40,430 nucleotides of DNA, from sequence record PQ593108.1; one strand, 5' to 3'. This DNA is from Escherichia phage MirsaeidiM_Esher7. The position numbers and the translations under genes were made by a program. Below the pieces are notes generated by a model that ran no database searches, was not told the DNA's origin, and was given only the letters and a program-made list of their open reading frames with translations. Positions 17,467 to 39,039 of this stretch are shown here, in pieces. Each line of letters opens with the position of its first letter. Positions within the stretch are counted from its first letter, which is position 1.

Positions 17467-17580
17467 AGGTTTACTCCTTAATGGTCATAGGGGCTAGACG
17501 GTGAGCTGGGCAGCAGGTACGCCCAGAATAAGACGAATAGTGCTAACCATGTGTAAATAAGGAACATAGTCCCTCCTCCG

Positions 17581-17618
17581 AAAAAAAACCCCTCAAGCAC
17601 CCGAAGGCACCCAAGGGG
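17581..17618 (-). terminator. T-phi-like intrinsic terminator after the capsid gene
   Basis: Minus-strand RNA CCCCUUGGGUGCC-UUCG-GGUGCUUGAGGGG followed by U8; resembles the T7 T-phi stem-loop in sequence and position. Confidence 0.8.
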
Positions 17619-17624
17619 TTTCAA

Positions 17625-18799
17625 TTAGTTGTTGGACTCAGCCAGTTTAGCGGCCCTGTTCGCAGCACGAGTACGCGCAGCTTTCTGTTGAGGAGTTAGA
17701 GTCTCCTCTTCAGGTGCAGCCGCTACTGTAGCGACGTTAGGTTGGCTAAAGGTGCTTACGCCGCTGGGCTGAAAACCAGTGCGCCAGCCGCTTCAGGACG
17801 CAGACCACCGTGACCCATAGCGTATTTACCAACAATCAGGTCACCCTGAGCATCTACGTCACGGTCACGTTCCAGCGCCAAGTCACGCAGCTTCACAGTA
17901 CCCACAGCAGAACGGTGAGAGAACAGACCCACAACGTTGTCCAGAGCAACTTTAACATCACCAGCAGCAGTAGCTGGGAAGGCGTGCTTCTGACCAGTCG
18001 CAATAGTGATACCATCGGCACCACGAGTTTCACCAGCACCACCCTGAGTCAAGTGTGGAACTTCAACAACCACGAAGCCCATTACGTTACGGATGTTACC
18101 AGTCTCTGGGTCAATCAGCGCAGCATAGTTAGCAGCGTTCGGCATCAGAGCCGCGAGGATTGCAGAGTAGTTGTCAGGCGTTGTATAGAAATAACGGTCA
18201 CCAGCAGGAACGTAGTTGGAGGTCAGCTTCGCACGAGCAATGGTCAGTTGACCAATTATTGCTTCACCCAGTTTAGCCGGGGTGTTTAGGTCAGCTTTCT
18301 TACCAACTCCAAGTACGGACGCAGTGCCCAGACCAGCGATGTTCTCGTTGGATGCAGCCGGGAGGTTACACAGGATAGCCATTTCAGCCAGCACCGCACC
18401 ATCAGCAGCGATAGCCAGAGCTTCACCCAACTGGTTGGAGTACTCGCCAGCCACGTCGTAGTGGTTCATTGCGTCTTCAATGTCGAAAATCATCACATCG
18501 GCAGTCAGCAGACCATCAATGGTAATCACTTTCTCGGTATGCTTGATACCTTTACGCTTATCGGACAGTCGCTCACCAGGAGCCAGATACACACCAGAGG
18601 TGCGCCCCATGACCGGGAACTGAGCAGACTTACCGTTCTGAATGGTACGGACAATATGCTTGTCAGCAGTTACAGAGCGGCGAGTGAATGCGGTCAGGAC
18701 TTCACCAGCAAATACCTTCAGGAACAACGCCAGAGCGTCGGTACTGGATTTACCTTTACCTTGGTCTATACCAATTTTCTGACCCGGAACGTTTGCCAT
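17625..18799 (-). CDS. minor capsid protein 10B produced by -1 programmed ribosomal frameshift
   Basis: Slippery heptamer G GTT TTC (plus 17771-17777) seven codons before the 10A stop; the -1 frame stays open for 48 codons (QPSGVSTFSQPNVATVAAAPEEETLTPQQKAARTRAANRAAKLAESNN) and stops at 17625-17627, just before the terminator. Same heptamer as I recall for the T7 gene 10 frameshift. Confidence 0.6.
17756..18799 (-). CDS. major capsid protein 10A
   Basis: 347 aa (T7 10A is about 345 aa); downstream of the phi10-like promoter. Confidence 0.95.
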   Translation of the reverse strand: MANVPGQKIGIDQGKGKSSTDALALFLKVFAGEVLTAFTRRSVTADKHIVRTIQNGKSAQFPVMGRTSGVYLAPGERLSDKRKGIKHTEKVITIDGLLTADVMIFDIEDAMNHYDVAGEYSNQLGEALAIAADGAVLAEMAILCNLPAASNENIAGLGTASVLGVGKKADLNTPAKLGEAIIGQLTIARAKLTSNYVPAGDRYFYTTPDNYSAILAALMPNAANYAALIDPETGNIRNVMGFVVVEVPHLTQGGAGETRGADGITIATGQKHAFPATAAGDVKVALDNVVGLFSHRSAVGTVKLRDLALERDRDVDAQGDLIVGKYAMGHGGLRPEAAGALVFSPAA

Positions 18800-37221: not shown

Positions 37222-37482
37222 TTACTTGCATATCAGTGGGTTAGCGTGAAGATGACTGAAGTCACCGTGAGTCGTGTGCTTGATGGTTGACCGTTGGTCT
37301 ATCGCCTTCCAGCCTGAGACTAAAAGTTTACCATCGTCAGTGCTCGGTCGTCCACCATACGCCAGACACATCAGTTCGGACTTATGGCCCTCAGCCTCCA
37401 TGCGGCGGTGTAAGAACACGTCACGCTGTATTTGCTCTACACTGCTACGGATAGATGGTCTGTTAATGTATACGGTTTTCAT
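37222..37482 (-). CDS. hypothetical early protein
   Basis: 86 aa; ATGA overlap with the upstream nuclease gene stop. Confidence 0.5.
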   Translation of the reverse strand: MKTVYINRPSIRSSVEQIQRDVFLHRRMEAEGHKSELMCLAYGGRPSTDDGKLLVSGWKAIDQRSTIKHTTHGDFSHLHANPLICK

Positions 37483-38515: not shown

Positions 38516-39039
38516 CACTCGCAGTCCTCCTCAGCAGCCTCAGGATCGAACACTACGTTATCGTTGATGTCTTCGACCTGCATGTGAAAACCTTCCTCAT
38601 AGAGTTCTTTTGCACATGCAATAGCCTCGTAAAGTGATACAGCTGCCTCAATTATCTCGCCTGTTCTAGTGTCAACTACCCAATATTCAGCCTTTTCGTC
38701 TTCCTCTTCAGCCTTTTCGTCGCTCTCTTCAGCCTCAAACCAGACTACATCCGAGCTATTAGACACATCGTTATACAGTGCCTCATAGATGCGAGCTTGT
38801 AGTATACGCGTTACGTCCTTGGTCTCAGGCATCAGCCCAGAGTCTTCGAACTCGTGGTCTATACCATCAGCAGCCATCACCGTAAAAATCTCGTGGTAAT
38901 AGTGCGGAACCTGACCGTCTACGACCTCATGCAGCGCATCGCTGTAGTCATCGCCTTCAGCTATTTCGTCGTACTGAATACGCTCATTGAACAGCTTAAC
39001 GGTTTCAGCCAGCAGCTCATAGTATGCGTTACGTTCCAT
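38515..39039 (-). CDS. ocr: Ocr-like anti-restriction DNA-mimic protein (gp0.3) with C-terminal extension
   Basis: N-terminal 118 aa closely match recalled T7 Ocr (VPHYY..IF.VMA..GID.EFEDSGLMP.TKDV.RILQARIYE); an additional 56 acidic residues follow (174 aa total vs about 117 in T7). Confidence 0.85.
   Translation of the reverse strand: MERNAYYELLAETVKLFNERIQYDEIAEGDDYSDALHEVVDGQVPHYYHEIFTVMAADGIDHEFEDSGLMPETKDVTRILQARIYEALYNDVSNSSDVVWFEAEESDEKAEEEDEKAEYWVVDTRTGEIIEAAVSLYEAIACAKELYEEGFHMQVEDINDNVVFDPEAAEEDCE

Follow-up and report, generated by a model that had tools for sequence, protein, structure and literature searches.

Does the major capsid gene of this phage end in a programmed -1 ribosomal frameshift site, from which a second and longer capsid protein would be made? 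The window analysed here is a stretch of 40,430 nucleotides from Escherichia phage MirsaeidiM_Esher7 (PQ593108.1), and the region concerned extends from 17625 to 18799. A first-pass annotation of this DNA had claimed that the arrangement mirrors the frameshift of T7 gene 10, which makes the minor capsid protein 10B. This claim is supported by an identical heptamer, by homology of the tail encoded in the -1 frame, by the coding-type evolution of that frame, by the presence of a homologue of the Tphi terminator and by the literature on phage K1F. Comparison of the sequences makes it very probable that this K1F-like phage (Kayfunavirus) uses a programmed -1 ribosomal frameshift of the T7 gene 10 type to produce 10B. 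The frameshift as such is already known: it is a textbook feature and has been described for the same phage species group (K1F).

The capsid gene and its slippery heptamer

Gene 10A is located on the minus strand, as is every gene in that part of the window. Its product matches the Gp10A-like family PF21703 in Pfam (E 6e-105) and phrog_267, major head protein, in PHROG (E 1e-101), and shares ~72% identity with 10A of T7. The gene carrying the frameshift site is, on these matches, a homologue of T7 gp10A. Matches to the capsid region are found in 308 phage records, the best being Escherichia phages of the genus Kayfunavirus with 94-98% identity; gene 10A itself shares 95-98% identity with capsid genes of this genus. 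Over the first 25 kb of the window, phage K1F is ~95.5% identical, with 95% of the length covered. The gene and its overlapping -1 frame comprise the following features.

18799..17756, minus strand: gene 10A, major capsid protein, 347 aa, with its TAA at 17758..17756 (from the ORF list)
17777..17771, minus strand: slippery heptamer G_GTT_TTC, comprising the 0-frame codons V342 and F343 (from the sequence)
17625..17771, minus strand: 10B-specific -1 extension, 48 sense codons at 17771..17628 and a TAA at 17627..17625 (from translation)
complement(join(17625..17771,17771..18799)), minus strand: full 10B, predicted, 391 aa, with base 17771 read twice

The 10A protein terminates with ...GHGGLRPEAAGALVFSPAA*, and the 0 frame at the end of the gene reads ctG GTT TTC AGC CCA GCG GCG TAA, beginning with L341, V342 and F343. 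The heptamer had been placed seven codons before the 10A stop, and this position agrees with the sequence, where it corresponds to codons 342/343 of 347, with the stop as codon 348. All four statements of the earlier observation hold; the strand had been left unsaid and is in fact the minus strand. The -1 frame is open from 11 codons ahead of the 10A stop, and the heptamer falls inside this 11-codon overlap.

G_GTT_TTC is the sole in-frame XXYYYYZ motif of the entire capsid gene. The GGTTTTC string occurs three times in the 40.4-kb window, both strands taken together. The copy at 38592 (minus strand) was rejected as a -1 heptamer because its codons, in the frame used by the ORF that ends at 38517, are GGT_TTT_C, and the remaining copy is found at 37474 (plus strand).

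The shift site of T7 gene 10, G_GUU_UUC, is identical to the heptamer of the window. The strict X_XXY_YYZ pattern of the canonical -1 PRF cassette is not present in this heptamer, as G_GT is not a homotriplet. In T7, gene 10 is a case of -1 frameshifting in which X_XX of the heptamer is G_GU, a known intermediate form (PMC5009743). In the capsid gene of the window, GTT accounts for 11 of the 28 Val codons and TTC for 9 of the 10 Phe codons, each being the commonest codon for its residue. Conservation of the heptamer may therefore partly reflect codon preference, which tempers the argument drawn below from the association between heptamer and extension.

According to the proposed mechanism, most ribosomes on the capsid mRNA would end at TAA 17758..17756 and release the 347-aa 10A. 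In a minority, translation would pause while GUU is paired with tRNA-Val in the P site and UUC with tRNA-Phe in the A site. The two tRNAs would then slip one base in the 5' direction, to GGU and UUU, where tRNA-Phe would re-pair perfectly and tRNA-Val at 2/3 positions. Decoding would restart at CAG (17771..17769) and add 48 residues, giving a 10B of 391 aa, which would be a minor subunit co-assembled with 10A in the capsid, its C-terminus exposed. We infer that tandem slippage takes place at exactly G_GTT_TTC in the window phage. As for its efficiency there, only the ~10% frameshifting of T7 (PMC1635266) could serve as a guide.

The -1 frame and its coding character

After F343, the -1 frame reads QPSGVSTFSQPNVATVAAAPEEETLTPQQKAARTRAANRAAKLAESNN; read from the heptamer onwards, it gives GFQPSGVSTF...KLAESNN*. 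Two further details of the first-pass annotation concern this stretch, namely the count of exactly 48 further -1 codons, which is borne out, and the junction peptide ALVF|QPSGVSTF, which is as predicted from the sequence. The complete 10B is predicted to be a protein of ~41 kDa with the junction ...GALVFQPSGVSTF.... The -1 frame of the extension was also searched for a start of its own, and no ORF of at least 20 aa beginning with ATG, GTG or TTG was found. Since the stretch lacks its own start codon, the tail can be reached from gene 10A only; for the missing start codon, the tail was rejected as an independent gene.

A single-sequence AlphaFold model of the tail, taken as weak evidence, has coil at residues 1-26 and a helix at residues 27-47, with a mean pLDDT of 77. 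The prediction for the tail is a flexible linker rich in Ala, Pro and Glu, then a single basic helix, which carries the conserved core LTPxQxAARTRAANxAxK.

The length of the open frame is not evidence by itself. The probability of finding 48 open -1 codons by chance is ~0.08-0.1, with ~0.08 calculated from the stop-triplet frequency of 0.050. Furthermore, at least 43 open -1 codons past the stop are present in 12 of the 34 long ORFs of the window, mostly since the next gene overlaps. With such a chance probability and so many control ORFs likewise open, the decisive support for translation of the -1 frame is the comparison with related sequences.

Comparison with T7 revealed that the core of the tail is homologous, whereas its N-terminal part is not alignable with the window. 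The two tails share 23 identities over 36 positions in BLASTP (E 2e-11, in a single comparison), and the window tail also matches phrog_12582, 'head protein', in PHROG (E 3.7e-10). A tblastn comparison of the 48-aa tail with the phage collection gave no match, which is attributed to low-complexity filtering, since identical sequences do occur among the records matched by the capsid region. The T7 tail comprises 56 aa and its 10B 398 aa, compared with 48 aa and 391 aa in the window; the heptamer start and the 10B stop are separated by 177 nt in T7 and by 153 nt in the window. The T7 extension is not Ig-like, unlike that of T3 (PMC5009743). T3-type Ig-like extensions occupy the same position and follow the same logic, whereas the window tail is short, non-Ig and of the T7 type.

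The pattern of substitutions was assessed in the -1 frame with T7 and two related loci, L008 and L032, since the DNA of the tail hardly varies among close relatives. In the comparison with T7, pS for the tail is 0.90, which is near saturation, and pN is 0.26 (pN/pS 0.29). Within the 18-codon core, 12 of the 19 nucleotide differences from T7 affect the third base of a -1 codon, and the two phages share 14 of 18 residues. The same third-position pattern of the core is observed with L008 and L032. In addition, length differences of the tail between relatives correspond to whole codons, i.e. in-frame indels. As judged from these comparisons, the -1 frame evolves as coding sequence.

The closest known system is K1F, a phage of the same genus (Kayfunavirus) that shares both the heptamer and the terminator of the window. 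From the heptamer to the 10B stop, its cassette matches that of the window at 150 of 153 nt, i.e. with three point differences, and the same 48-codon tail differs by one amino acid (A to D). For K1F gene10, a -1 frameshift in the 3' region has been described, which adds 44 triplets and gives the minor capsid protein (PMC6277420). A fusion of GFP to the C-terminus of g10b (g10b::gfp) yielded stable fluorescent phage (PMC6277420), and the K1F frameshift site has been reused for display (PMC13370021). The studies of K1F also led to the suggestion that the phage may need 10B.

The terminator and variation among related loci

Past the extension, one further feature is present.

17622..17581, minus strand: T7 Tphi-like terminator, with a hairpin at 17622..17585, a 17-bp stem, a UUCG loop and an 8-T tract to 17581

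The -1 frame had been said to end immediately before a T-phi-like hairpin; the hairpin begins 3 nt past TAA 17627..17625, which bears this out. It is G+C-rich (-34.3 kcal/mol, z -3.7), a terminator scan agrees, and the CCCC of its 5' arm is located at 17618..17615 (minus strand). The window terminator aligns with T7 Tphi, with AACCCCTTGGG...CTTGAGGGGTTTTTT in common, as well as with the K1F terminator and is, by this alignment, a homologue of Tphi. As in the window, the 10B stop of T7 is found just ahead of the homologous Tphi hairpin with its CCCC.

In T7, the CCCC of a transcription terminator lying over 200 nt 3' from the slip site plays a part in frameshifting (PMC5009743). By analogy with T7 only, the terminator hairpin may act as a frameshift stimulator here. 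The Tphi-like hairpin, including its CCCC, is conserved; irrespective of extension length, it is positioned 6 nt past the 10B stop in almost every Kayfunavirus locus. One locus, L008, carries ACCC...GGGT in place of CCCC...GGGG in the terminator stem and keeps both the heptamer and the T7-type tail. As this compensatory pair preserves the stem and not the CCCC, the case, although single, hints at selection for the hairpin and not for the letters CCCC.

Local RNA structure 3' of the heptamer was not significant when compared with shuffled sequences, either over 91 nt (z -1.7) or over 216 nt (z -2.0). A possible stem begins 2 nt past the heptamer (z -1.7), and 13 of 200 shuffles fold just as well, the search covering structures free of pseudoknots. 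Rfam returned no frameshift element, only sub-threshold chance matches on the terminator hairpin. Loci with different types of extension also have different sequences directly 3' of the heptamer.

Relatives show a mosaic pattern in the DNA directly past the terminator. In the window, a small ORF at 17478..17567 (minus strand), located ahead of gene 11 and past the terminator, encodes a hydrophobic product of 29 aa, MFLIYTWLALFVLFWAYLLPSSPSSPYDH, and is preceded by a strong RBS, GGAGGAGGG. L001 and L013 share this ORF, L007, L011 and L008 have a diverged form of it (57% identity), and K1F lacks it and differs from the window in this respect. The annotation of phage Pipis lists it as a hypothetical protein with a single transmembrane segment.

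The relation between heptamer and extension was examined in 78 related loci from viral metagenomes, together with reference phages. In 30 of the 31 loci with an in-frame G_GTT_TTC, the -1 frame extends for at least 40 codons, compared with 10 of the 32 loci that have neither slip motif. The Fisher value for this association, 3e-8, comes from loci that are related and not phylogenetically independent, so it is no true probability. Among the 10 extended loci without a slip motif, six appear chance-like, three of them running into gene 11 and three being protein-unlike read-throughs of 50-56 codons. Variant sites are found in the remaining four, namely C_GTT_TTC (L024, L025) and G_GTT_TTT (L038, L052). 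In the loci without an extension, Val342 is encoded by the synonymous GTC or GTA.

The extensions themselves vary. In L009-L021, L072 and L073, whose 10A is 94-96% identical to that of the window, a -1 extension of 91-94 codons replaces the 48-codon T7-type tail, bounded by the same heptamer and the same terminator. This longer extension matches phrog_7473, has no match in Pfam and occurs in 455 phage records, including those of Klebsiella phages. On comparison of these loci, the DNA from slip site to terminator behaves like an interchangeable cassette for surface decoration, with fixed junctions. In L038 and L052, G_GTT_TTT is followed by a -1 extension of 475 codons, composed of a Big_2 domain and ~390 residues without a Pfam match; for a capsid decoration gained through frameshifting, this is unusually large.

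More distant loci differ at the slip site as well. Ten of them, with 72-77% identity in 10A (L064, L045, L051, L049, L057, L033, L044, L046, L048 and L059), lack GGTTTTC and carry xxA_AAG_Gxx two codons ahead of the stop, plus a -1 extension. The extension of L064, the only one of the ten scanned against Pfam, contains Big_2 (PF02368, E 7e-13). The distant relatives bearing Big_2 have the A_AAG motif without GGTTTTC, whereas the window has GGTTTTC. The comparison suggests that xxA_AAG_Gxx is a different slip site, involving a single tRNA-Lys and serving the same purpose.

A further observation concerns L007, a close relative with a record of 39,300 nt and 96% identity in 10A. Just past its 10A stop, at about locus position 2544, a 1-nt deletion changes TAAGC to TAGC, so that the tail no longer follows in the -1 frame and 10B would be cut to 15 extra codons. 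L007 would be either a natural 10B-null phage, in which 10B is dispensable, or a case of sequencing error in the record.

A broader proposal assigns a specific function to the basic helix LTPxQxAARTRAANxAxK of the short tail, such as binding to a component of the host envelope or capsule or stabilisation of the capsid, and regards it as interchangeable with Ig-like adhesion domains. In the same proposal, the terminator hairpin would stimulate the shift independently of distance, being 153 nt from the heptamer in one case and 291 nt in the other. We regard this proposal as speculative and rather unlikely as a whole.

Alternative explanations and meaning

The same protein tail could be reached by other routes, which have to be weighed against slippage at the heptamer. 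One is a -1 shift that is real and occurs elsewhere in the 11-codon overlap, for instance by a single tRNA-Pro slipping on C_CCA (P345, 17767..17764). The -1 frame is already open there, and AGC_CCA permits re-pairing from CCA to CCC; the resulting ...ALVFSPSGVS... would be equal in length to ...ALVFQPSGVS... and differ from it by one residue. However, C_CCA is not conserved, since relatives with the same heptamer and extension read TTC ACA GCA, TTC AGT CAA or TTC AAA GTG at this place, whereas G_GTT_TTC is the element common to those relatives and T7. A slip on C_CCA is accordingly judged very unlikely. Even less probable is transcriptional slippage, in which the phage RNA polymerase would add one U to some mRNAs on the T run and so give rise to 10B. 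The shift site does contain the homopolymer TTTT, and an mRNA longer by one nucleotide would reach the downstream frame, but the run is only 4 T and productive transcriptional slippage needs ~8-9 or more identical bases. In addition, the T7 gene 10 event is treated as ribosomal frameshifting (PMC5009743).

The remaining explanation involves no recoding at all: the open -1 frame and the heptamer would coincide by accident, and the 150 nt from the 10A stop to the terminator would be an untranslated 3' region. Such a coincidence would fit the unremarkable length of the open frame, seen both in its chance probability and in the control ORFs, and the preference of the gene for GTT and TTC. It is contradicted by protein-level homology to the T7 10B tail despite saturated synonymous divergence, by the phrog_12582 match, by the in-frame indels and by the association of heptamer and extension, as well as by the stable fluorescent K1F g10b::gfp phage (PMC6277420). 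Because of the homology and the selection data, coincidence is excluded for practical purposes, and it is the least credible of the three alternatives. A programmed -1 ribosomal frameshift of the T7 gene 10 type is the reading that we retain.

The 10A/10B pair is annotated inconsistently across Kayfunavirus. Phage Penshu1 (MK903281) has a joined CDS at the homologous place, for a 391-aa 'minor capsid protein ... produced by -1 frameshift', and a joined 10B CDS is present in T7 (NC_001604). In many other relatives, 10A alone is annotated, sometimes mislabelled as minor capsid protein. This is observed for Pipis (PV714130) and P7124 (PQ133619), in which the name 'minor capsid protein' is applied to the 347-aa 10A ORF and a joined CDS for 10B is missing.

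The 10A/10B frameshift of this phage raises no new biological question, and its meaning is mainly practical. For annotation, the window should carry a joined 10B CDS, complement(join(17625..17771,17771..18799)). For engineering, the C-terminus of 10B is a proven low-copy display site in K1F.
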